56,348 nucleotides of DNA from a virus (IMGVR_UViG_3300025151_000042:1-56348), one strand, 5' to 3'; shown: positions 1,147 through 41,505, numbered from the stretch's first letter. Numbers and translations: made by a program. The notes: a model not told the origin generated them from the letters alone.

Positions 1147-1533
1147 ATGACTAACAATACAACAGCCGAGACTTGCTTAAATGCATTGAATGAAACAGTA
1201 GACTGCATACCCCTAGAATCATCATCTTTACTTGGTGATATAGAGATAATCTTACTAGCGTTAGTAGGATTAGCGGGAATAGGAGTATGGCTTTACAAAA
1301 AGTTCTTAGTACTAAATGCTGACGGTAAAATAACTCTTGATGAGATTATTGATAACGTAGATGAGGTAAAAGAAAAACTTGTAGAAGCAAAAGCAGAATT
1401 AAAAACTCTAGACGAAACTCTTGAGTCCCGTAATGTTACTGAATTAAAGGCTATGCTAAAAGAAAAGGGACTTGCTGTTAGCGGTAAGAAATCAGACCTA
1501 ATTGCTCGATTGAAGGCGAGTATGGATGAATGA
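1147..1533 (+). CDS. membrane protein with C-terminal SAP DNA-binding domain
   Basis: TM helix (IILLALVGLAGIGVWLY), EF-hand-like NADGKITLDE, coiled coil, SAP motif VTELKAMLKEKGLAVSGKKSDLIARL. Confidence 0.8.
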   Translation: MTNNTTAETCLNALNETVDCIPLESSSLLGDIEIILLALVGLAGIGVWLYKKFLVLNADGKITLDEIIDNVDEVKEKLVEAKAELKTLDETLESRNVTELKAMLKEKGLAVSGKKSDLIARLKASMDE

Positions 1534-1771
1534 AGATAGCGTTATTAGTATAAGATTAGATAATTTAGAAGAAACTGGAAAAAGACATGAAAGACTTATT
1601 GAACAACTAGTTCAGTCTAACATGGATATGAAAACAGGTCTTGCACAAGTGGCTACTGAATTAGAGGTTACTAATGGTCTTATTGCATCCTATATGTCAA
1701 ACACTCAAAAGATTACATTGGCATTAATAGCAATAGTGGCAGGGGCTATGGGTCTATCAACGCAGATGTGA
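1526..1771 (+). CDS. coiled-coil protein with C-terminal TM helix (holin/XhlA-like topology)
   Basis: Heptad-rich N-terminus and hydrophobic C-terminus ITLALIAIVAGAMGL. Confidence 0.55.
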   Translation: MNEDSVISIRLDNLEETGKRHERLIEQLVQSNMDMKTGLAQVATELEVTNGLIASYMSNTQKITLALIAIVAGAMGLSTQM

Positions 1772-1775
1772 TATT

Positions 1776-1937
1776 ATGAATCAACAAGAATGGCATATAT
1801 GGTGTAGAGACGTTACACAAAGATTAGCAAACCTTGAAAAGACACTAAAAGCGTATAACAAAATGCAGAAGCGTATGCTTTTTGTGATAATAACAGGAAC
1901 GGTGTTAAGTAATGGTCTATTATTGTACTTCAAGTGA
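1776..1937 (+). CDS. small coiled-coil + TM protein (53 aa), not in ORF track
   Basis: MNQQEWHIWCRDVTQRLANLEKTL...MLFVIITGTVLSNGLLLYFK*; co-oriented and gap-filling. Confidence 0.6.
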   Translation: MNQQEWHIWCRDVTQRLANLEKTLKAYNKMQKRMLFVIITGTVLSNGLLLYFK

Positions 1938-3120: not shown

Positions 3121-4182
3121 ATGGGTATAGCAACAAAAACACAATATTGGAATAGTAGGATGACGGGTTCAGACCCTACTGCATTAACTGGTACATTTAA
3201 TGATAGTTGGACTGCTGCCGGTAGTGGTTCAGCATCCGGTGGTGATTGGATAATTACTAACGGAACATATAGTATTACACCGGAAGCAGGTGGCTCTTAC
3301 ACCTTAGTTGCTGCTTTTGAATATACTACCGCACCTAGTACTAATACTGTTCTTATGACCTTAGATAATGGTACTCATAAAGTAGAGGTAAAATCAACAG
3401 GTAATAATACATCATTAAGTTTAGTAGGTGCTAGTACTGTTACTGTTAGTGATTTAGACATTAAAAAAGAAGAAGAGAAACCAGTTACTTTAATCTTAAG
3501 ACTAACTTTAGAGGCAGGTGGGGCAGCAAAACTTTACACACACGAAATAGTTAACGACTTTACTGGCGCAGTTGCCTATTATAGCGTCACAGGAGCGTCT
3601 GGAAGCAGCGCATCGGTTAGTTGGGGTAATACTAGCGGCAGCGTAAAATGGTCGGCTGTATATTACTCTAAGTTCGGTGCATTTACACCCGAAGAATTAC
3701 TAATATCTGACTTCGCGCAAGATACTTTGGCTAGAATGGGTCTTGGTATAGTACAGCAATTAAAAGATAGTACTAGGATGTATCTAAAAACACAAGTACC
3801 GGACTCATCAATAATATATGGTTATGATATATCTTCGCAAATGCTTAACAGAATACCTGTACCGAGCATACACGTTTTAATATCTGAGTTAAACTCGCCT
3901 AATTTTGAGTCATTAGGTGGTGCAAAAATAACACAAGAGTACGATGTTAGGGTATTTATTACTGTTAGGGGTACTAATTATGAAGATGCTTACCGAGCAG
4001 GACTTAATATTATGGGAGAAGTATTCGATGAATTATACACAAATACTGGGGTACAAGCCACAACAGACAGTATTATTTCATACGATGCTAAACTAGATTC
4101 AAAAATGGATGATGACGAGACTGTTTGTGTTCATGTATTAACCCTTACTTATATGAGAAGAATAGATATGAGACACCGATAA
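3121..4182 (+). CDS. tail terminator-like protein with N-terminal beta-sandwich domain
   Basis: C-terminal PSIHV...EYDVRVFITVR...HVLTLTY pattern of tail terminators; directly upstream of the tail tube gene. Confidence 0.6.
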   Translation: MGIATKTQYWNSRMTGSDPTALTGTFNDSWTAAGSGSASGGDWIITNGTYSITPEAGGSYTLVAAFEYTTAPSTNTVLMTLDNGTHKVEVKSTGNNTSLSLVGASTVTVSDLDIKKEEEKPVTLILRLTLEAGGAAKLYTHEIVNDFTGAVAYYSVTGASGSSASVSWGNTSGSVKWSAVYYSKFGAFTPEELLISDFAQDTLARMGLGIVQQLKDSTRMYLKTQVPDSSIIYGYDISSQMLNRIPVPSIHVLISELNSPNFESLGGAKITQEYDVRVFITVRGTNYEDAYRAGLNIMGEVFDELYTNTGVQATTDSIISYDAKLDSKMDDDETVCVHVLTLTYMRRIDMRHR

Positions 4183-9604: not shown

Positions 9605-12600
9605 ATGGTAAGAAGTGTAACAAAAAAATATCAGATATGGCTTGCGGGTTTTTATGATGATTTTAACGGTGCGAGAGCAATACCGGATTACTTACAACTA
9701 CCTTCTGATACATCATACTCAGTAACACTAAGTCATTTTGGAAATCCTATGAATGGCGAGGCTTCTCTTAATCCTCGCTATCGTTGGTCTATTGTAGAAA
9801 GGGAATTAAAGACTAACCACGACGATACACTTTTGGGTACAAACGATGTAAATAGATATTTACGTAACAACGGGGTGTTTGAGTGGTTAAGTAGAGATTC
9901 TAAAAGAAATAGTTATGACGAATGGGAAGGTAGGGTACAACTACAATACCCCGATGGACACGTTGCTAACAGATACAGATTTGGTGGTAGTACATCCGAA
10001 GGAGACGTAGGGTATCAGAGATTTGTTAATGGACACAATACTGCTGCTTCTTACATAGTACCTGTTGGTGCAAACGACGCAACATTTGGTAGAGCAGACA
10101 TGAAAAGATTTGACGCTACAAACTATGCAGCAGAAAACGCAGGGTTTATTTCTACCACAGGAGATTTTGTACAAAGAGCGCACCTTACAGGTTCTTGGAT
10201 GGGAGAAAAAATAACCCAAACCACATCCGAATACAATACTGTTGATGGAGATAATAACCACACAACTTCCCCGTCTAAAGTATTTGCCGAAGTCACTTCT
10301 CCCGCAAAAAAACCCTTTTTATGTGTTCAGACCGTAAGAAAGACCCACGATTCTTCTAGTATTATACCTGCAATTATTTACGATGGACACTTAAACTCAA
10401 GATTAGAAAGAGATACTTTTACCGCAAGAATAGCACTAAGAAGTTTTATCGCAAAAGGTTCAACTGATTGGACTAAAGTAGGAATACAATTTGAAATAGG
10501 TTTTGCTGCTACACAAGCGGGATTATTAAACGATACGGGTTACACAGGTACACCTGAAATAGATTACATCTTAAAATTAAATGATACTAACGAACCACAG
10601 TACGATACTTTGGGATTACTATATGATGGTAGTACGGCGCAAAGTTATACTAACGATAACACTTGGTTAGACATTGACTTTGTTATGAAATATGCAACAG
10701 GTAAATATGATGTTTACTTAAACGGTACTAGAATAGAAACCGACCTTGCTTTGGCTAGTGGTACTAGTGTAACACCTGCAAATCTATATGGCTTTCAAAT
10801 AACTACCAACACAAGACAAGGTTTAGCCGCTAATCAAGGTTATGTTTCTTATCTTATGCTAGATAGAGTAGGTATGGTTAGGTGTCTTACTGACGACATT
10901 ACTACTACTGACGAAGTGCAAATTAAATCTCTAAGAAATAATAGGGGTGTAAACTCAGTAAGTACTTGTAACGTAGTTATAACTGATGATGCGGATAGGA
11001 CAAACGGTAATACTGGGTTACTCGCAACAGATTATGTAGAAAACTTAAAAGATTTATTTGTTACTGATTCTCCTTTAGATTGGGAATTATTAGTGTTTAG
11101 TGATACGAATAGTAGGATAGATAGACCTGTATGGAGAGGTACAGTTAATAGTTTTAAGATAAATCAAAATAAAAGAACTAGGGAAATACAATTTAGTGCT
11201 AACGATGGATTGAGATTTTTAGACAATCAAGTGCCACTTTGGGAAATAGGGCAGGAAGGATTAAATGATAACTTAGGTAAAACACCTTATTGGTTGTATG
11301 ATGCACAGGGTTTTAAGGAAATAATGAACTTAGGTGCAACAAAATTAAAATTAACAGGTAGTGATGTTGGGTTTGAAAGAGATAGTAGTTATTTAGAAAC
11401 GTCAACACAAAGAATGCAAAGTAATTCCGGTTTACCTATACAAATGTATAACAATGAAAATCCTATATACGGACCAAATGACATAGAAAATTATTATGAG
11501 GGTGTGGGTATAATAGGTTTTCAAAAAGATACTTCGGGTAATACCTTGGTATATATGAATGATGATTCGCATACTATAACTACTTCTTCAACAGTAAGTA
11601 TATTAGGAACAAAACATAATGCTACTAATATAAGTCCTACCGCAGTCTCAGTAGACAAACTAACTTTAACTTTTGCTTCCGGTGATTTGCCTTTTTCTGC
11701 GGAAACAGCAAAAATAATATACATAGGAAAATATGAGCCACCTACTGAATTAGACCACACGAATTGGCAAATAAGTAATACTTTAACTGATGTTTATAGA
11801 AACTCCACGTATTTTCCCGCTTGGTATAAACACTTAACTCCTAAAAGTGGCCCTTGGTATATGAATGTGTTTTTCGATGCAGACCCTAGTTTAGAAGTTG
11901 GTGATTATTTTTACATTAATCAAGAGGCTATGGATAACTCAACAGCACTTAACTCAGCATATACAGGTAGGCTCAAAGTTAAAAGTGTTAGAAAAATACA
12001 AAGTATTTATACTAATTACTTTACACAACCCGAAAAAGGCGGTACTTACGGGGCTTACATTACCTCACCTACATATATATGGGCGGTACAAACATTTACT
12101 CCATACCCTTCATCTTTAACAGAACATGGTGTTTACACGCCCGAAACTACATTAGATGGCGCACTTTCTTCCGGTGCATCTAGTATCACATTAACTGATG
12201 CTTCTAATTTTGGCACTTCGGGAACAGGAATAATAATAATACCTACTTATTTTAATAACATACCTACTAACCTAGATACATGGGGAACTGTAGATGTAGA
12301 TTATGATGTATTTACTTGGACAGGAAAAAGCAGTAACACTTTAACTGGTGTTAGTGGGGTAGGTGTTTCTCATTTAGATAATGCAGTTGTTTTCCAACAT
12401 TTTCCTAAACCGGCAGATGATTTATTAGTTAATAATGAAAGATTTCAATGGTCTAAAGATACTTCCGCAACAGTAATTGGTACATTTACTGATACAACAG
12501 AACCCATAAAACACAGGGTTATACAGGCTAGGTGGATGAGAGATTTACCTTTATCCTTATGGTTTAAGTATCAATTTGGTATAGTAAAAAAAGACCCTGT

Positions 12601-15600
12601 TAACAATACTATTACAGGTACGGCAAATCAATATGGTTTAATACATCAAGGGGCAGACCAAACCCTAAACTCAAGTACGACTAGTATAAGAGTAACACAA
12701 ACTACATACGATTCAGCCCCAGTTAGCGGTGTTGCTGAATTATGGAAAGCACCAACTACACCTTTGATAACGGCATCTGATAATGTTTATCAAGAAAAGT
12801 TTATTTATACCGGAAAACAAACTACTGGGGGTATTTATTATTTGACAGGTGTTAAGTATATTACAGGTAGTTATACTACATCAGATGCAAGCAGTTCTCC
12901 ACCATATTACTACTTAAAGTTCCAAGACCATAAAGATGATTACAAACACATTTGGTTACTTTGGGCTGACATGAGAAATAACGGACAGGCAAACGCAGAC
13001 GGTGAGTTAAGAAAAGAAAGTTTTGGTTTGCAGTACCCACTAAGAGATAATTATGAATTACAAATGTATTTTGCAGACCAATTTGATGAAAATGGTAACG
13101 TAGATAAGTTTGGTAGCCTTAACATAGGAGAAGATATACATATATGGAATATGGATGCCACTAATGACCCTATTACAAATGGTCCATTTTCTAAACCCGC
13201 AGATTATTCTTCCGGTGTTGTAGTTACTAGTCTAGCAGATGCAAGCGGTAAATTAAAAATACTAACTTCTGACACAGGTACAGTAGCCGTAGGAGATTAC
13301 ATACACCTAACAGGTAGTCTTAATCACGATGGGATGCATAGGGTTGCTACAGGCGGATTGAGTAGTAATACTCATTTTATCACCGAAACTACATATGTTA
13401 GTACTACCTTAAATGCAGGTGGTGGGAAATATTATACCACAACAGGTAGCGATAAGGATTTATCGGTGTACCAAGATTGGGAGGACAAAGGCGGCTCTTT
13501 CTTAGTTATAGATGCTTCGCCTTTCTTTAACCTTAATACTAATGCTAACGGTAGTAAGACGGGGCAGACTTCCGGTGGAAGAACAGACCTAACTGATTAC
13601 GTACAAGAAAGAGAGGGTTTCCCTGCACTAATAGATAATTATTGGGCGGAAGCATTACCTTCTTATCAAACCACAGGTGATATAACATTAGAACATCCGG
13701 CACAGTATAGGCTACTTTCTGATGCTTCATTAGCAAGTGATAATTTACAAAATGGCTACAAAGGATTACCTATTGATGACCCTAGTAAGTTTGATGATAG
13801 CGGGGTAGGAAAAATAATAGAAAGACTAGAAAATACTGATACAGCCGACCCCGAATATTTATTTTTATGGCATAGCAAACTAGATACAAAATACACTTCT
13901 ACAGGTGGTTCACAAATCCAAACTGCGATAGATGGGGGGGCTAACACCCAAGTTCAATACGGTGTAGGTAATACGTTTGTATCTAGTGGATTAAAAGAAG
14001 GTATGTTAATTAATAATATAAGAAGCGGTACTGTTACCCCACAATACATAATTGAAGTTGTATCTGATTTAATCTTAAAGGTAAGTGGCGTTTGGCAAGG
14101 AGGCGATACTTTTGAAGTGCCACCACAATTAGGGAAAGTGTATATAGCACCGTCTGATGACATAACGGTTACTGCTGCTGATGATTTAACTTCTTTAGAG
14201 CAACAAGTTAGAGATTCATTTGCGGCAACAGCCCAAACTTGGGATGATTACGGCTTAACTGGTCTTAGTATAGAAGAGGGGAAGGAAATTGAAGTTCACT
14301 CCACAGTTCATTCAGCATTTATGCTTAGATTATTAATGCACCTAAAAGGTAATATTAAAAATAAAAATAGTGGTACTTTTTGGGAAAGCGATAAGTTTAG
14401 AACACTATGGAATGCTGCAATTATGGACACTTGGTTGCCACCAACAACAGTTAGAAACATTTACGATATTAATAATATACCTATTACTTCTAAGATGAGT
14501 ACCTATAACTCTACTACTAGTAGCGATAGTTACGGTTCGGTAGTTGACAGTAGAGGTAGTACATTTTTAAGTACAATTAAAAAAATACACAACAATAGTG
14601 GTATAGGTACAGAAAATAACCTTAATACTACTTTTTCTTATCTAGTAGGTAAAGATAATAGGTTTGAGTTTAGACCTAAATACAATAGTAATATATCTTT
14701 TACTAGAAATAATATAACTATGAATAATATGGCTGCAAACATTTCTTCACAAGTTACTAATGTTCGTGTGTATTATAACAACGGACAAAGTTTTGTGGAT
14801 TATCCGGCCACAAACCTTACAGACACTACTAGGTGGAAGATATTACAATTCCCTAAAGTAACACAAAGTTTTGAGGCAACAGTTTTGGCTAAAAAAGAAT
14901 ATGACAACTATAAAAAATCTCCCTTAAAAATAAATGTAAGTCCAATTTTAGATGGAAATTACAAAATGATAGAAACAGGTAGGCATGGTTACATAGCAGA
15001 TTCTTATGTTGCTTTAGAAGGTACAGATGATGATTACACTAAAGTGTGTAACTGGACTAGATTAGGTACAGGTGGTGCGTTGTTTAATGGTATGGTAAAC
15101 GCATTAGACGGAAACATGAAAACATCTACTAATTTGTATGCAAGGTATGGTGTAAGTAAAGACGCTACGACAAGTGGCGATATTTCTTGGAATGACAACT
15201 ATTATTGGTATGGTAGTGGTTCAGTATCTAATGCTGTACAAATAGTGCATATACCTAACAACACCCCACTTGTTAGCGATAATCATTCACATCCTATGCG
15301 TATATGGGTAGATTTGAAAAGCGGTCAATCAGGAACAGATATAGACAATGCTGAGTTTACTATACACGTAGCAGATTATTCCTTTTCCGGTGAAACTAGA
15401 ACAGCGACAAGTCAAAGTGCAGCAAGCGTAAATGTAAAACATAGTGGTTTTTATGAGTTGGCTTTACCTTCGACATATAGTGATACAAGCGTAGGTAACA
15501 TGGTAGTTAGTTTTAACGCAGAATATTGTAGGGCTTTATTACGTCATAGATGTGGCGACCCAACAGACGCTAATATCTTAGCACAAGTAGCAACAAACAC

Positions 15601-16726
15601 TAACACAATATTCCCTCTAGGTATGAGAGAATACAGCGAAATGGGTGGATTTAAGACTACTAGAGCAGAATGGTATGCACCTAAGATTCTAATAACAAAA
15701 GACTTGTCTTACACCCCCGCTACTTATGTAACAATGACTGATGCAGGATTAGGTATGGCTACGGCAGAAACTATGGTTATACAAAGAGTTGAGTGGTCTA
15801 TTAGTGCGGGAAGAACAGAAGATGTAAAATTAACATTAGAAAGAAATGAATCAATTGGCGCTCAAGGTATTATTGCTAGATTATACGCACAGAATAATGA
15901 TGATTTACAAGTAGGGCAAGATTTAGGACAACAATCGGGAACAGGAAGTGTATTAGACGGTAATAACGAAGATGTAACAATACCCAATAATCCTAGCAAC
16001 GAAGCATTAGACGATGACACTCAAAAGAAACAAAATGGTACGGAAGATGGTAATGCAGAAGCGACGGATAGTTTTTCTAGGGGTAAAAGAAGTCCTGCAT
16101 TAAGTAGGGGTAGTAGAATGAGTCTACAAAACGATTTCTTATCTGCTAATAGTAAGTTTTCTATATTAGGCCAAGAGAGAATACCAATTACACCTTCTAA
16201 CATGAGAAGTATAGAAGGTATGGATGTTGAAATAACCCCTATATCGGGTAGTGCTGTTGTAACATCAGAAGGATATATTTTTGCTAGTAAGGGATTACAA
16301 GATACTGATGATTCTTCTATAACTAATCAAGAAGTATCTATTGAAACGTCATTCGTAGTACCTAGTGATATAATGAATAATATCTTATCTATACAAGCGT
16401 CATTAAGCAACGGTGGTATCTATAATGATAATAGCGTTGTGGTGTTATACATAACAGCAACTTGTTTAGAGACAAACACTAGTGTTGAACACACAGTAAG
16501 GGTGGGTGGTGGTATAGAAAAGAAAACTATATCTCTAATGCCTACTACTATATTAAATGGTTTAGATACTGTTGGTAATAATATTAAGATAACAATAACT
16601 AGAAAACCAAATGTAGGTAATGATAAATCCACATCATCATTAGTACTACATAATTTAGAAGTAAATATGAGACGAGCCGCAGCCAATACCAAATCTAACT
16701 CTAGTCAATTTTCTACTATCACTTAA
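9605..16726 (+). CDS. giant tail tip/hub and receptor-binding protein (2373 aa)
   Basis: Follows the tape measure gene; Thr/Ser/Gly/Asn-rich beta structure; hub-like segments (VWRGTV...FSANDGLRFL; FEFRP...VTNVRVYY). Confidence 0.7.
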   Translation: MVRSVTKKYQIWLAGFYDDFNGARAIPDYLQLPSDTSYSVTLSHFGNPMNGEASLNPRYRWSIVERELKTNHDDTLLGTNDVNRYLRNNGVFEWLSRDSKRNSYDEWEGRVQLQYPDGHVANRYRFGGSTSEGDVGYQRFVNGHNTAASYIVPVGANDATFGRADMKRFDATNYAAENAGFISTTGDFVQRAHLTGSWMGEKITQTTSEYNTVDGDNNHTTSPSKVFAEVTSPAKKPFLCVQTVRKTHDSSSIIPAIIYDGHLNSRLERDTFTARIALRSFIAKGSTDWTKVGIQFEIGFAATQAGLLNDTGYTGTPEIDYILKLNDTNEPQYDTLGLLYDGSTAQSYTNDNTWLDIDFVMKYATGKYDVYLNGTRIETDLALASGTSVTPANLYGFQITTNTRQGLAANQGYVSYLMLDRVGMVRCLTDDITTTDEVQIKSLRNNRGVNSVSTCNVVITDDADRTNGNTGLLATDYVENLKDLFVTDSPLDWELLVFSDTNSRIDRPVWRGTVNSFKINQNKRTREIQFSANDGLRFLDNQVPLWEIGQEGLNDNLGKTPYWLYDAQGFKEIMNLGATKLKLTGSDVGFERDSSYLETSTQRMQSNSGLPIQMYNNENPIYGPNDIENYYEGVGIIGFQKDTSGNTLVYMNDDSHTITTSSTVSILGTKHNATNISPTAVSVDKLTLTFASGDLPFSAETAKIIYIGKYEPPTELDHTNWQISNTLTDVYRNSTYFPAWYKHLTPKSGPWYMNVFFDADPSLEVGDYFYINQEAMDNSTALNSAYTGRLKVKSVRKIQSIYTNYFTQPEKGGTYGAYITSPTYIWAVQTFTPYPSSLTEHGVYTPETTLDGALSSGASSITLTDASNFGTSGTGIIIIPTYFNNIPTNLDTWGTVDVDYDVFTWTGKSSNTLTGVSGVGVSHLDNAVVFQHFPKPADDLLVNNERFQWSKDTSATVIGTFTDTTEPIKHRVIQARWMRDLPLSLWFKYQFGIVKKDPVNNTITGTANQYGLIHQGADQTLNSSTTSIRVTQTTYDSAPVSGVAELWKAPTTPLITASDNVYQEKFIYTGKQTTGGIYYLTGVKYITGSYTTSDASSSPPYYYLKFQDHKDDYKHIWLLWADMRNNGQANADGELRKESFGLQYPLRDNYELQMYFADQFDENGNVDKFGSLNIGEDIHIWNMDATNDPITNGPFSKPADYSSGVVVTSLADASGKLKILTSDTGTVAVGDYIHLTGSLNHDGMHRVATGGLSSNTHFITETTYVSTTLNAGGGKYYTTTGSDKDLSVYQDWEDKGGSFLVIDASPFFNLNTNANGSKTGQTSGGRTDLTDYVQEREGFPALIDNYWAEALPSYQTTGDITLEHPAQYRLLSDASLASDNLQNGYKGLPIDDPSKFDDSGVGKIIERLENTDTADPEYLFLWHSKLDTKYTSTGGSQIQTAIDGGANTQVQYGVGNTFVSSGLKEGMLINNIRSGTVTPQYIIEVVSDLILKVSGVWQGGDTFEVPPQLGKVYIAPSDDITVTAADDLTSLEQQVRDSFAATAQTWDDYGLTGLSIEEGKEIEVHSTVHSAFMLRLLMHLKGNIKNKNSGTFWESDKFRTLWNAAIMDTWLPPTTVRNIYDINNIPITSKMSTYNSTTSSDSYGSVVDSRGSTFLSTIKKIHNNSGIGTENNLNTTFSYLVGKDNRFEFRPKYNSNISFTRNNITMNNMAANISSQVTNVRVYYNNGQSFVDYPATNLTDTTRWKILQFPKVTQSFEATVLAKKEYDNYKKSPLKINVSPILDGNYKMIETGRHGYIADSYVALEGTDDDYTKVCNWTRLGTGGALFNGMVNALDGNMKTSTNLYARYGVSKDATTSGDISWNDNYYWYGSGSVSNAVQIVHIPNNTPLVSDNHSHPMRIWVDLKSGQSGTDIDNAEFTIHVADYSFSGETRTATSQSAASVNVKHSGFYELALPSTYSDTSVGNMVVSFNAEYCRALLRHRCGDPTDANILAQVATNTNTIFPLGMREYSEMGGFKTTRAEWYAPKILITKDLSYTPATYVTMTDAGLGMATAETMVIQRVEWSISAGRTEDVKLTLERNESIGAQGIIARLYAQNNDDLQVGQDLGQQSGTGSVLDGNNEDVTIPNNPSNEALDDDTQKKQNGTEDGNAEATDSFSRGKRSPALSRGSRMSLQNDFLSANSKFSILGQERIPITPSNMRSIEGMDVEITPISGSAVVTSEGYIFASKGLQDTDDSSITNQEVSIETSFVVPSDIMNNILSIQASLSNGGIYNDNSVVVLYITATCLETNTSVEHTVRVGGGIEKKTISLMPTTILNGLDTVGNNIKITITRKPNVGNDKSTSSLVLHNLEVNMRRAAANTKSNSSQFSTIT

Positions 16727-24330: not shown

Positions 24331-24348
24331 TGTATTAGGGTTATAAAC
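24331..24348 (-). promoter_or_regulatory. promoter GTTTATAACCCTAATACA (identical copy at 28279-28296)
   Basis: 18-bp exact repeat, each starting 32 nt upstream of an ATG (24316 and 28264). Confidence 0.75.
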
Positions 24349-25885
24349 TTTCAGTTAATATCGCTGCATCAGTCATAAGAAGTAATGCTGCCACGCTAAC
24401 CGCAGATTCTAAACTGTTAATTGTAACCTGTACAGGGTCAATAACTCCATCATTAAATGCGTTTCTAACCTCAGTAGTTTTACCACAAATATATTGTTTG
24501 TACGTATGTATAGGTATCTCGCCCGTATTATTACCTGCATTCTGTATTATTGCAGTTATAGGTGCTAATAATCCAAGATTAAATAACTTCTTAATATGGT
24601 AATCAACATCTTCGGGGTGTTGTGACAATTTCATTCTAGCAAAGTATAGTGCTGAACCACCACCTGCGACCACGCCACTATCCATAGCCAAACGACAGGC
24701 GTTTACTGCATCATCTACACGTTCCTTTCTTTCTAGTTGTTCGACTTCTGATTTACCACCGACATATATTTTAGATATGCCGTTAGTCAATCTTGATATA
24801 CGATTGTTATAGTATTGTTGCATCCAATCATTAGTTGCTTCATCTTCATAACAGGCCAAAGAATCTAAGTGTTCGTTTAATTCATCGGACGGCTCTCCAC
24901 TCGATGTTATAATAGTAGTCAAAGCAGAAGATTGTATTTTCTCACAAGAGCCAACATCAAATGACGTTAGTTTCGTGATAGATTCTCCTAGAGAAGTCTT
25001 AAACAAATTACTCTTAGTAACTAATGCTATATCTTCTAACCATGCTTGTTGTTCTTCCGGCATACCCGAAGGTTTGACTAACAACGCACTTATTTTACCT
25101 TGTGCTATGTTGACTAAAAGATTCTGTAACGCTTGATGATTAAAGTCAGCACAGAATATAGCAATAGGTTTGTTGTCTTTGACTGCTAACTCTAAAGCAG
25201 GTATCAAAGCATTGAATGTCTCTATCCTTTCAGTAGTAACTACAACCATAGGGTTATCTAAGATGCATCTAGCCTTCGGACTGTTAATCATAATGTTGTG
25301 TGCGTAACCCGCTAAAACTTCTAATCCTTGCACATCTTCCGTGTATGTTTCATAAGTAGGACTTTTTTCTATCGTAATAGTACCCTTACTGCCTGTCTTA
25401 TTGATAACTTCTGCTATCATTTTACCTAATTCGGGGTCATTGTTAGCAGCAATAGTAGCCACATCTTCGATAGAAAAGTCATCGGTCTTGATGTCATTAA
25501 GATAATCTATTGTCTCTTCTAAGTAATAACCCAAAGCATCTCTTATAACAATAGGACTAACGCCCTGTTCTATTAAGGAAAGAGAACCATTACACAAAGC
25601 CTGTGCTATCAATGTAGCAGTAGTAGTACCATCACCCGATTTTTCCTGTGCTTCTGATGCGACCTCTTTAAGAAGGTCTATACCCATTTGTACATAGGGG
25701 TCTTTATCATTGATAGCCCTAGCAACAGTAACACCGTCGTTGAGAATGACAGGCATACCCGCAGGGTTTTGTATGATAACTGTTCTAGCATTTACACCTA
25801 GAGTACCTTTGACTGCGTTAGCAACCTTGTTTACACCTTTGAGTAATTTGACCTTAGCATCCATTCCTGTTAATATTGTTTCCAT
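24341..25885 (-). CDS. groEL: group I chaperonin GroEL
   Basis: AVKGTLG, NDGVTVA, GDGTTTAT, ATIAANND, VDDAVNA, GVVAGGG and GVIDP; GroEL-type apical domain. Confidence 0.95.
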   Translation of the reverse strand: METILTGMDAKVKLLKGVNKVANAVKGTLGVNARTVIIQNPAGMPVILNDGVTVARAINDKDPYVQMGIDLLKEVASEAQEKSGDGTTTATLIAQALCNGSLSLIEQGVSPIVIRDALGYYLEETIDYLNDIKTDDFSIEDVATIAANNDPELGKMIAEVINKTGSKGTITIEKSPTYETYTEDVQGLEVLAGYAHNIMINSPKARCILDNPMVVVTTERIETFNALIPALELAVKDNKPIAIFCADFNHQALQNLLVNIAQGKISALLVKPSGMPEEQQAWLEDIALVTKSNLFKTSLGESITKLTSFDVGSCEKIQSSALTTIITSSGEPSDELNEHLDSLACYEDEATNDWMQQYYNNRISRLTNGISKIYVGGKSEVEQLERKERVDDAVNACRLAMDSGVVAGGGSALYFARMKLSQHPEDVDYHIKKLFNLGLLAPITAIIQNAGNNTGEIPIHTYKQYICGKTTEVRNAFNDGVIDPVQVTINSLESAVSVAALLLMTDAAILTESL

Positions 25886-39277: not shown

Positions 39278-39502
39278 TTACTCCGACCCCGCCTTTACTA
39301 TTAACCTTTTCTCTTGTCGAATCTCTTCTAATTCTTCTAACATTTTTCTAGTATGTAGTAAAAATGTATTCCACGTATTTTCATCATGAATACTACTTTT
39401 ACCTAAAACATAACTATAATAATTATCAGAAATTATTTTATCTTTTAATTGTCCCCAAAATAATATATCATCTATAGTTTCTTTTTCCTTAATAATACTC
39501 AT
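39278..39502 (-). CDS. hypothetical protein
   Basis: GAGGTGA SD. Confidence 0.55.
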   Translation of the reverse strand: MSIIKEKETIDDILFWGQLKDKIISDNYYSYVLGKSSIHDENTWNTFLLHTRKMLEELEEIRQEKRLIVKAGSE

Positions 39503-39827: not shown

Positions 39828-40151
39828 CTAAAAATCCCTCACTAGTATTGAATCATCATCTAAAACGATGTGGTAAGTGTTATCTTCTAGGTACTCGATT
39901 GTTTCCTCTTGAGTAATACTACTCTCGCCTAAGTAAGCATCTCTTACTTCATATATACCACCCATGTATTGAGTCCACTCGCAGCAAATACCTACAACAT
40001 CTAATTCATAATTTTCTAATTCATCATAATAATCGAATAAAGCCACTATTGCTTTTTCGGTAAAATTACCATGCGTCTCACTAGTTTTCAATCGCCCGTA
40101 TTTTCTAAATGCGTCTATCATTCCGTATTTTCCTATTCTTGTGTATATCAT
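39828..40151 (-). CDS. acidic phage hypothetical protein
   Basis: DAFRKYGR...NFT...ALFDYY...ELDVVGICCEWTQY; start at the ATGA overlap. Confidence 0.6.
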   Translation of the reverse strand: MIYTRIGKYGMIDAFRKYGRLKTSETHGNFTEKAIVALFDYYDELENYELDVVGICCEWTQYMGGIYEVRDAYLGESSITQEETIEYLEDNTYHIVLDDDSILVRDF

Positions 40152-40255
40152 TCTTCTTCTCCCCCTGTAAATCTTTTTCCGCATAACCTACAATTGTGTT
40201 CACCTAAAACTCTAGGGCAGCCGGATTCTTTGCATGACATTTTATTGTATCTCAT
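40148..40255 (-). CDS. Zn-finger micro-protein (35 aa), not in ORF track
   Basis: MRYNKMSCKESGC...CRLCGKRFTGGEEE*; preceded by a TATA/GGAGTCGGAGT element. Confidence 0.55.
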   Translation of the reverse strand: MRYNKMSCKESGCPRVLGEHNCRLCGKRFTGGEEE

Positions 40256-40295
40256 GGTACTCCGACTCCGACTTTACTATTAAGGTTATTGTATT

Positions 40296-40516
40296 GTAAC
40301 TCTCATTTTGTTGGCTTATCCGACTTGTTAATGCTTTATGATTTATACGAGAGCCGTCTACCATGTATTACCATGTCGGTTCGTTGCATATCGGTTACGG
40401 TTTTGGGCTACCACCGTTTATGTAGCCTCGCCAACTTATTCCTGTTGGTCGGCATGGGTGCGAATTACCCAACATTAGGATGTCCTACGCTGACATCACC
40501 GACAGGAATGAGTTAC
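40296..40516. ncRNA. candidate structured non-coding RNA (~220 nt)
   Basis: Nested complementary segments closing the whole intergenic region, plus an H-type pseudoknot; no credible ORF. Confidence 0.45.
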
Positions 40517-40527
40517 TTTTACCGTAT

Positions 40528-41505
40528 TTATAGGTACTCTCCTACTAAGGACTCCCATGCCTTAGATTTCATTCTTGAGCCTGTACCAATGATTGCCGAT
40601 TCGACTCTCTTGTCGTTTTGTTTCTCACCTTTGCGGTCATATGTCCACTCATGGTCTAGGTAGTAAGTTACTGTATTGAAAGCAGCGAAAGCACTAGAAC
40701 CGTTACCGTTGTGGTTGTTGGTAGGATGTGCCTCTACTTCTAGTAATCTCTCTAATGTGTTATTACCTCTTGTAGTCAATCCTAGAGGGTTAGTTGCATC
40801 AACTAACTCTTCATTTTGTTTTATCCCAAAAGTATCTAGGTAGAAAGAAACTCTATCTTCTTGAGTCATCTCAATGTTGACTAATTCTTGTGCATCTAAT
40901 ACGAATTGTTGGTTGAGCATATCTACAACTTTCAATGCCTCTACTAATTCAGCAACTCTTTCTTCTTGCTTTGCTGAGTGGCGTATTACTAATTTCTTAG
41001 GGTCGATACCTGCTCTCTTGATACCCGCCATTAGATGGCTGAATTGGTTAGAGCATCCAATAATTACGTTGCTAGGAATTACTCTAATTCCACCGCTACC
41101 GTCATGTGTATTTGTAAGGTAAATGTATTGGTCTACATCATCCCATCCACTAATTGTAAATCCTTCCGGCAATTTGAAAGAAGCGAATAATTTCTCTCCT
41201 TCACCAATCATACCTATCTTATCCCAGTCAATTTCTCCACGTTCTACTAATTCGTTAGCAATGCCTAATAGCCTATCATTCTGCATTGGTACATACGTTT
41301 TACCGACAACACCTAGTGTTGTGTCGTTATCTGTTCTAAAGACTCGATTAAACTTAGACCTAATCGGTTTACCTTTAGAGGTATATAGTGGCTCAATAGC
41401 CACATCGAAGTTAAGTCCGGCGTTAGCCAAGACTTCTTCGGCAGTCGTTCCTTGTGCGTCATTTCCAAATCGGGCAATTGCCCCTAATGTGTTTTTCATA
41501 CTCAT
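40528..41505 (-). CDS. DUF932 (TIGR03299-like) phage/plasmid protein
   Basis: AGLNFDV, LGVVGKTYVPMQN, TNTHDGSG, GCSNQ, IRHS and AFNTVT. Confidence 0.85.
   Translation of the reverse strand: MSMKNTLGAIARFGNDAQGTTAEEVLANAGLNFDVAIEPLYTSKGKPIRSKFNRVFRTDNDTTLGVVGKTYVPMQNDRLLGIANELVERGEIDWDKIGMIGEGEKLFASFKLPEGFTISGWDDVDQYIYLTNTHDGSGGIRVIPSNVIIGCSNQFSHLMAGIKRAGIDPKKLVIRHSAKQEERVAELVEALKVVDMLNQQFVLDAQELVNIEMTQEDRVSFYLDTFGIKQNEELVDATNPLGLTTRGNNTLERLLEVEAHPTNNHNGNGSSAFAAFNTVTYYLDHEWTYDRKGEKQNDKRVESAIIGTGSRMKSKAWESLVGEYL

Follow-up and report, generated by a model that had tools for sequence, protein, structure and literature searches.

What does the 272-nucleotide (nt) spacer encode that separates a DUF932 family gene from a 35-residue cysteine-rich open reading frame (ORF) on the minus strand of the virus record IMGVR_UViG_3300025151_000042 (56,348 base pairs (bp), the whole stretch of DNA analysed here and hereafter the window)? 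An initial annotation of this IMG/VR record placed a candidate structured RNA of ~220 nt with a pseudoknot at 40296–40516 in this spacer, left its strand unresolved and recognised in it no transfer RNA (tRNA), transfer-messenger RNA (tmRNA) or known ribozyme. Comparison with homologues bears out the structured RNA, and we conclude that it almost certainly belongs to a real RNA family that is absent from Rfam 15. All of the listed helices, including the terminal stem and those of domains 1 and 2, are present in the sequence; the element is, however, not a single RNA of ~220 nt but rather two independent modules (domain 1 and the former domain 2, hereafter the core) inside an outer stem, P1, that is specific to the window. 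The core is a three-way junction in which helix P2 encloses the P3 hairpin (with the proposed pseudoknot) and an arm composed of P4, P5 and P6 (see the table for coordinates).

Six relatives were first reached through DUF932 (loci are given here by L numbers); three of these (L003, L005 and L007) keep the core, the other three (L004, L006 and L008) have a short unrelated hairpin in its place, and none of the six has domain 1. Scans with conserved-word patterns yielded 11, 18 and 3 viral loci and 40 metagenome loci, and a covariance model (R1) built from 12 sequences matches 35 of the latter, the remaining five being unrelated sequence. A looser pattern added the variants L081–L084, and a scan for an arm module added the divergent L086. 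The core family now has no fewer than 38 distinct members, from uncultured marine phages, that is, 34 distinct full-length sequences of long or compact form, three distinct short forms (L003, which equals L027, L016a and L028; 28–39 bits) and L086. Alignments were made from 36 and then 34 sources, excluding duplicate contigs and sequences, the truncated L017/L037 and L063, and the short forms.

Across the 34 distinct core sequences, 96.6% of the 834 cells at 25 pairs are paired, a percentage that is inflated by the fitting of this alignment to the model structure. Two-sided changes occur in 13 of the 25 pairs (53 cells), a count matched by none of 500 shuffles, and only 18–38% of cells remain paired when the partners are slid by 1–3 columns; seven covarying pairs were already seen in the MAFFT alignment A1. 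By helix, two-sided changes are present in three of six pairs of P2 (with the types GAUGGC/GCCAUC, GGGGGC/GCCCCC and GUAGGC/GCCUAC), in three of six pairs of P3 (100% of cells paired), in three of four pairs of P5 (owing to L081, with GCCGC/GCGGU, and L084, with AUUAC/GUAAU) and in all four pairs of P6. Homologue covariation, proposed by the initial annotation as a check, thus favours the helices. In addition, 37 of the 106 columns of the core do not vary, and many of these are unpaired: junction J2/3 is GA and the 3′ strand of P4 is GUCGG in all 34 sequences, and J4/2 reads AUAA in 26, GUAA in six and AAA in two.

On the basis of base-pair usage and gene orientation, the strand that had been left unresolved is now settled as gene-sense (that is, minus in the window), because G.U cells exceed A.C cells at variable helix pairs (51 versus 12, although a single U.G pair that hardly varies accounts for 30 of the 51) and because the flanking long ORFs share the strand of the element in 10 of 11 loci, which were listed on both strands. 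The pseudoknot contributes a further 8 G.U against 0 A.C cells. The 17-bp plus-strand stem (40433–40449 with 40498–40514) that had suggested an alternative orientation is real, but is merely the complement of the closing helix of domain 1 on the minus strand. A conserved ORF, which the annotation had named as a possible refutation, does not explain the region: 27 of the 34 sequences lack an open sense frame, core lengths (80–266 nt) fall into the three classes modulo 3 as 10, 12 and 12, 1-nt insertions and deletions occur in the P3 loop, and a Pfam search of the ORFs that overlap the element gave no match.

The folding energy of the window sequence alone establishes no more than chance, and the support for the fold comes from its homologues. 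The comparison with shuffled sequences envisaged at the outset gave z-scores for the whole element of −2.1 on the minus and −3.7 on the plus strand and for domain 1 of −2.2 and −3.6, but for the core alone of only −1.0 in the sense orientation (−2.5 on plus). Such weak single-sequence scores, together with the inverted repeat and the loose 23-nt direct repeat (74%) that flank the window copy, are what could be expected if there were no functional RNA here, but only inverted repeats that arose by chance, a concealed ORF or a miniature transposable element bounded by terminal inverted repeats. This explanation is barely credible, because it is contradicted by covariation at 13 of 25 pairs and by the lack of a conserved frame; a miniature inverted-repeat transposable element was rejected in view of the single locus per genome and of an outer inverted repeat that differs from locus to locus and is absent elsewhere.

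For the pseudoknot, the evidence is of a different kind. The pairing between the P3 loop (ACNGGU) and the junction (ACCGU) can form in 30 of 30 sequences, the divergent L086 again offers four pairs (its junction ACCUA faces the loop end AAGGU), and the connecting loops (AUAA, G and CAAA) have the lengths and the A-richness that fit H-type pseudoknots. An H-type pseudoknot in the core, as originally proposed, is therefore likely from sequence comparison, with covariation in three of the six pairs of the P3 stem itself; however, the changes between loop and junction are all one-sided and wobble-keeping (C to U in 6–7 sequences, A to G in one).

Other parts of the fold vary widely. The tip of P6 ranges from a GCAA tetraloop (L021) to ~160 nt (L011), the 12-nt bulge J6/5 is reduced to AUA in L084, and P5 and P6 are replaced as a whole by one 5-bp hairpin in L082 and L083. 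P1, which in the window could also form with 10 bp and a 2-nt bulge, is elsewhere locus-specific or lacking. These natural variants show the arm tip, the 12-nt bulge and P1 to be apparently dispensable; the minimal natural form of the core (L021) is ~100 nt.

Domain 1, with the closing stem AUUCCUGU.CGG/CCG.AC..ACAGGAAU, was found in three distinct versions (the window, L018 and L069, which equals L070), with compensatory differences in its first hairpin (GAUGUC/GACAUC, GGCAUC/GAUGUC and GAUGCC/GGCAUC) and in its closing stem (GUCGG/CCGAC versus CAAGG/CCUUG). The window and L018 have it between P1 and P2, and every other locus except L041 (the metagenome twin of L018) has the core without it. 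As domain 1 stands by itself in L069 and L070, where there is no core, it is a separate module. A second recurrent RNA module, GGGUCGGAGAGAGAUUAGAUUGCAACGCCC, with the stem GGG.CG/CGCCC, was also observed. It lies within the P6 arm, immediately 3′ of the core or at a locus that has no core, a pattern that suggests RNA cassettes that are nested and can be swapped.

The same independence is seen in the genes around the core, which has at least a dozen different upstream genes, with DUF932, a clamp loader and a C5 DNA methylase among its identified neighbours. The position downstream of DUF932, pointed out by the initial annotation, holds for the window but is only one of these contexts: DUF932 is absent from four of five complete genomes, and as the gene occurs in only one of these five RNA-carrying genomes, it was rejected as the partner of the RNA. 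Three small cysteine-rich neighbours, compared as possible partners, have no evident homology. At the DUF932 site, close relatives carry the long form, the short form or no core; the site shared by L028 and L086 carries a short form and the divergent form, respectively; and the site upstream of the window's own clamp loader has no core. Each of five records that are 98–100% complete has one locus (in one case a tandem pair), as does the window; records 50–57% complete that lack the RNA were not taken as evidence of absence. The window core is identical to those of L021 (G008) and L024 (G009) at fractions of 0.91 and 0.86, whereas TerL and DNA polymerase identities to the window run from 79% and 71% (G010) down to 28–30% and 28–32% (G008 and G009), and flanking orthologues are 49–54% identical. 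A pattern scan of bacterial and archaeal genomes (185,579 species representatives) gave three chance matches, none of which fits the model. We therefore regard the core as probably a context-independent module that is horizontally exchanged. From this distribution we infer a self-contained accessory RNA gene exchanged among marine phages, whose function would lie in its fold and not in the control of a neighbour.

How the core might act is far less certain. The leading explanation of the whole, held with somewhat less than even confidence, is a self-contained accessory RNA, and within it we favour a host-directed binder. In such a scenario, the folded module would persist after transcription as a stable RNA, which would bind a conserved host factor and sequester it, or else mimic it, much as accessory or counter-defence genes do, and the optional arms and neighbouring modules would represent additional, separable RNA cassettes. 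As the actual mechanism, a putative trans-acting binder or decoy is a distinctly tentative proposal. The partner of the core is probably supplied by the host or is a small molecule, because the core works in phages that share only ~30% protein identity. A more specific possibility, which we consider rather unlikely, is that the core is a new functional RNA class, acting either as a self-cleaving ribozyme of a novel kind or as a decoy or sponge that is directed at the host and works against a factor of bacterial defence or RNA processing. It would be carried as a transferable cassette in 'structured-RNA islands', that is, single intergenic loci where marine phages would stack and swap several folded modules unrelated to one another (the core in long, compact or short form, domain 1 and the GGUCGGAGAGAGAU-type arm module).

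Several observations weigh against the accessory RNA. As regards the fold, P4 has no two-sided changes and 7 A.C cells at one pair, the pseudoknot likewise lacks any two-sided change, the 34-sequence alignment was fitted in a way that favours the structure, and in the window the sense strand of the core folds unremarkably, with the antisense strand doing better. As regards an independent transcript, a scan of the minus strand beside the element gave no promoter or terminator signal; marine metatranscriptome assemblies hold relatives of the core in DUF932 and clamp-loader contexts, but these contigs attest to presence only and not to ends, strand or transcription. Because a promoter and terminator of its own are lacking and because the core is tightly placed between ORFs (20 of 31 loci have the upstream stop ≤25 nt from P2, and 19 of 29 have the next start ≤55 nt from it), a cis-acting messenger RNA element would be equally well suited; indeed, in several clamp-loader contexts a flank helix touches the Shine–Dalgarno sequence, as in a translational switch. 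The high identity of the core could also reflect strong constraint instead of recent transfer, and a discrete stable RNA species and a host partner remain putative.

These placements bear directly on the alternative of a cis-acting translational regulator of the next gene (a riboswitch aptamer or protein operator in which P1 or P2 gates the ribosome binding site). At every locus the element occupies the 5′ region of the following ORF, which in clamp-loader contexts starts 22–26 nt from P2; this association persists across clamp loaders that are only 52–54% identical, flank helices pair with part of the Shine–Dalgarno sequence in L009, L011, L014, L056 and L059, and the many invariant unpaired nucleotides suggest a binding pocket. 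Yet the downstream genes are unrelated (a clamp loader, a C5 DNA methylase, the 35-residue cysteine-rich ORF and several others, in which no common riboswitch pathway is apparent), and in DUF932 contexts, including the window, the ribosome binding site lies ~40 nt past P1 and is not sequestered. At 13 of the 33 loci, flank duplexes outdo shuffled sequence (z below −2), whereas P1 is absent or no better in the other 20, no terminator or anti-terminator was found, and transfer across ~30% protein identity speaks against a phage-specific protein partner. Sequestration of the Shine–Dalgarno sequence finds no support as a general rule: a flank helix touches it at some clamp-loader loci but not at DUF932 loci. 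We consider cis regulation quite unlikely.

Known regulators offer partial parallels. Pseudoknotted junction-type aptamers include, for example, three-way-junction riboswitches with a loop–junction pseudoknot. The core resembles these in its closing helix by the ribosome binding site (at some loci), its invariant unpaired nucleotides and its one variable arm, but differs in having no common downstream theme, no expression platform in DUF932 contexts and no Rfam match. T4-type phages control replication genes through RNA operators (the gene 32 pseudoknot and the gene 43 hairpin), which, similar to the core, are structured RNAs, sometimes with a pseudoknot, that directly precede a replication gene within an operon of the phage; each of these, however, is tied to one gene and one phage protein, whereas the core moves among unrelated genes and distant phages.

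A new small self-cleaving ribozyme, or another processing site that cuts the polycistronic early or replication transcript between cistrons, would also account for a ~100-nt minimal core that combines a junction and a likely pseudoknot with unpaired nucleotides that do not vary. Small ribozymes such as twister-sister, pistol, hatchet and the HDV-like 'theta' (HDV, hepatitis delta virus) are comparable in size (~80–130 nt), multi-helix junction and hairpin-loop pseudoknot. Twister-sister, pistol and hatchet were discovered in such contexts, and the core shares with small phage ribozymes the optional peripheral stems, the location in phage operons without a fixed neighbour and the occasional tandem (here one pair). 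Against this, no Rfam 15 ribozyme family or other covariance model matches, the invariant positions (37 of 106) exceed what is typical of small ribozymes, albeit in a narrow sample, and there is one locus per genome where phage ribozymes are often multiple. We consider a ribozyme unlikely, although it ranks second after the host-directed binder. The family shows neither the hammerhead core nor the features that define HDV-like ribozymes. The invariant part of the hammerhead is CUGANGA ... GAAA ... UH around a three-way junction. Only the word CUGAUAA is similar to this, and it is made up of the 3′ strand of P6, which covaries, and its bulge; the window has it as UCGUAUAA and L030 as ACCUAUAA, and a GAAA after a second stem is missing. 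In HDV-like ribozymes, the 5′ end forms P1 with sequence that follows P3, and the catalytic C lies in J4/2; in the core, J4/2 has no C in any of the 34 sequences, and the 5′ flanks are mutually unrelated and, by eye, not complementary to CAAAACCGUAA. Ribozymes of the HDV-like type do exist in phages (PMC10879173).

Two further alternatives concern the stability and the replication of the molecules that carry the core. As a passive roadblock or stabiliser, the fold would halt exonucleases or RNase E scanning and so set the half-life of flanking cistrons, as REP (repetitive extragenic palindromic) hairpins and viral exonuclease-resistant RNAs do. An intergenic, sense-strand position directly after stop codons, a junction with a pseudoknot, independence of context and the simple GNRA or long G-rich hairpins that form the other cassettes in the same spacers of relatives would all agree with this role. 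It is nonetheless improbable, as a single locus per genome is odd for a general stabiliser, the conservation of unpaired positions goes beyond the needs of a mere roadblock and a simple hairpin serves the same site in L004 and L006. As a replication element (a structured primer, an R-loop RNA or a single-strand DNA initiation signal), the core would fit its one locus per complete genome amid clamp loader, polymerase and nuclease genes, its strict orientation and its high sequence conservation. It is, however, exchanged between phages with very different replication proteins, tolerates arm insertions of up to ~160 nt, adjoins no repeats or iterons, and has G.U pairs and an A-rich pseudoknot that are typical of RNA and not of DNA folding, which makes such a role highly improbable.

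For the accessory RNA that we favour, there is no counterpart among known families. Rfam 15 (4227 models) at gathering thresholds gave 0 matches across the whole window and ARAGORN 0 tRNA or tmRNA genes, in agreement with the initial annotation; at E values up to 10, Rfam returned only chance small nucleolar and long non-coding RNA rows around the window element, the minimal form of L021 and the L016 tandem (at best CLRN1-AS1 with 11.8 bits, Afu_199 with 12.8 bits and snoR138 with 12.2 bits). GOLLD, ROOL and HEARO are several hundred nucleotides long and are in Rfam. With these large, ornate phage-associated RNAs (10.1101/2024.12.08.627333), the core has in common that it is phage-borne, modular and variable in context, but it is only ~100 nt and does not match their models. 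It is also akin, as a covarying intergenic phage RNA from IMG/VR, to the 10,006 candidate RNAs predicted from that database, some of them upstream of GP32 (Fremin, Bhatt and Kyrpides 2023, PMC10690425); that study does not refer to DUF932 or a clamp loader in its main text, and its supplementary list may include the motif. Literature searches by listings and abstracts (with a core 12-mer, DUF932 and wider topics) found no description of the motif and, for DUF932, nothing on function or RNA.

Covarying folds with a likely pseudoknot and dozens of invariant unpaired nucleotides have been the source of past ribozyme and riboswitch classes, and the core is small enough for direct testing. Its distribution is unusual for an RNA (one locus, many contexts and near-identity across ~30% protein identity, beside swappable modules) and resembles that of protein accessory or counter-defence genes. 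If this resemblance is borne out, phages would trade non-coding RNA cassettes as they do small accessory genes, and a class of phage–host interaction would be invisible to protein-centred annotation.

Table 1. Features of the composite element, its flanking genes and the GGGUCGGAGAGAGAUUAGAUUGCAACGCCC module (positions in the window unless a locus is given)
Feature	Position	Strand	Length	Description
Whole composite element	40296–40516	−	221 nt	Outer stem, domain 1 module and core module
Outer stem P1, 5′ strand	40510–40516	−		GUAACUC; pairs with 40296–40302; window-specific
Outer stem P1, 3′ strand	40296–40302	−		GAGUUAC
Domain 1	40438–40509	−	~72 nt	Three-way junction: closing stem, hairpin GAUGUC-AGCGUAG-GACAUC, hairpin GGGU-AAUUCGC-ACCC
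Core module, long form	40310–40435	−	~126 nt	Model R1, 132 bits, E 3e-30
P2, 5′ strand	40430–40435	−		GUUGGC; pairs with GCCAAC, 40310–40315
P3 hairpin	40406–40427	−		GGCUAC-AUAAACGGUG-GUAGCC; loop holds pseudoknot 5′ strand ACGGU, 40413–40417
J3/4	40397–40401	−		ACCGU; proposed pseudoknot 3′ strand
Arm	40320–40394	−		P4 CCGAU/GUCGG, P5 AUGC/GCAU, P6 ACGA/UCGU
Arm, variable tip	40351–40380			
Arm, conserved bulge	40335–40346			AUAAAUCAUAAA
Arm, conserved bulge	40325–40330			UAACAA
Upstream gene, DUF932 family	40528–41505	−	325 aa	Pfam PF06067, E 2.6e-27; stop 92 nt 5′ of P2
Downstream cysteine-rich ORF	40148–40255	−	35 aa	Start 54 nt 3′ of P2; kept in L004, L006, L032 and L033
GGGUCGGAGAGAGAUUAGAUUGCAACGCCC module	L016:1540–1714	−		Inside P6 arm
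GGGUCGGAGAGAGAUUAGAUUGCAACGCCC module	L024:4284–4459			Inside P6 arm
GGGUCGGAGAGAGAUUAGAUUGCAACGCCC module	L011:6196–6477	−		Inside P6 arm
GGGUCGGAGAGAGAUUAGAUUGCAACGCCC module	L084:12693–12858	−		Inside P6 arm
GGGUCGGAGAGAGAUUAGAUUGCAACGCCC module	L028:7601–7628			Just 3′ of core
GGGUCGGAGAGAGAUUAGAUUGCAACGCCC module	L086:944–971	−		Just 3′ of core
GGGUCGGAGAGAGAUUAGAUUGCAACGCCC module	L081			Just 3′ of core (by eye)
GGGUCGGAGAGAGAUUAGAUUGCAACGCCC module	L085:6412–6439	−		Without core; beside a CUGAUAAAC..GGC-type element also found in arms

Other folded sequences were observed at or near these sites. At the DUF932 site, L004 and L006 have the hairpin GGGGGG-GCAA-CCUCCC (~3959–4007) instead of the core, and L008, also without a core, forms GUUGGGGGGAU/AUCCCCCCAAC, a stem of 11 bp that closes a loop of 45 nt (~3998–4110). 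A GGGGGAGAGAAC/GUUCUCUCCCCC hairpin lies 3′ of the core in L007 (~4100–4165). In L069:5000–5320(−), and identically in L070, the lone domain 1 is preceded on its 5′ side by two small hairpins and followed by ~300 nt without an obvious ORF, which may be a further non-coding RNA region. The tandem in L016 consists of a short and a long copy with duplicated flanks (1500–1900, minus strand); the shared flanks of ~30 nt take in the last part of the upstream ORF as well as the ribosome binding site and start codon (ATG) of the methylase gene that lies downstream, and their duplication creates a 5-codon mini-ORF (ATG GAG GTC AAA GAA TAA) between the copies, so that the tandem looks like unequal recombination between two alleles.

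The window itself has an estimated completeness of 84% and carries genes for terminase, DNA polymerase, a GroEL-like chaperonin, a clamp loader and nucleases. The phage GroEL-like chaperonin is at 24341–25885(−) (PHROG 5725, E 5e-101), and the tail region includes a 2,373-residue ORF at 9605–16726(+). The element is part of a long leftward early or replication transcription unit, as RNA of the gene strand. The GC-richer gap described by the annotation is present (GC fraction 0.455–0.46 against 0.33–0.42 nearby), but the rise is modest. Among 50,697 phage records, blastn detected none that matches the region, and no cultured relative or host could be assigned, because tblastn matches of DUF932 and TerL were all below 60% identity. 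The 35-residue ORF has no Pfam match. Readthrough of the DUF932 stop codon was considered and rejected, as a second in-frame stop follows two codons further on.

A 26-nt repeat, 92% identical, occurs at 39279–39304 and 40258–40283, where it forms the ribosome-binding region (TAATAGTAAAGTCGGAGTCGGAGTAC on the minus strand) 5′ of two different small genes, and its ribosome-binding word is also found 5′ of the cysteine-rich ORF in L003–L006. Other repeats in the window are short and at chance level only. The loose 23-nt direct repeat (D8, 74% identical; 40240–40262 and 40517–40539) brackets the whole spacer; its copies coincide with the DUF932 stop and the start of the 35-residue ORF, and it could be a recombination junction or chance. 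Many ORFs that stop just 5′ of the core end in a glutamate run (..EEE and stop; L021, L023, L024, L029, L038, L066 and L068), as does the 35-residue ORF of the window. In addition to its coding role, the purine-rich GAGGAAGA-type sequence may act as a ribosome binding site, or it may belong to the transferred cassette, and the 5′ flank GAUUACAA before P2 is common to several of the loci with the glutamate run.
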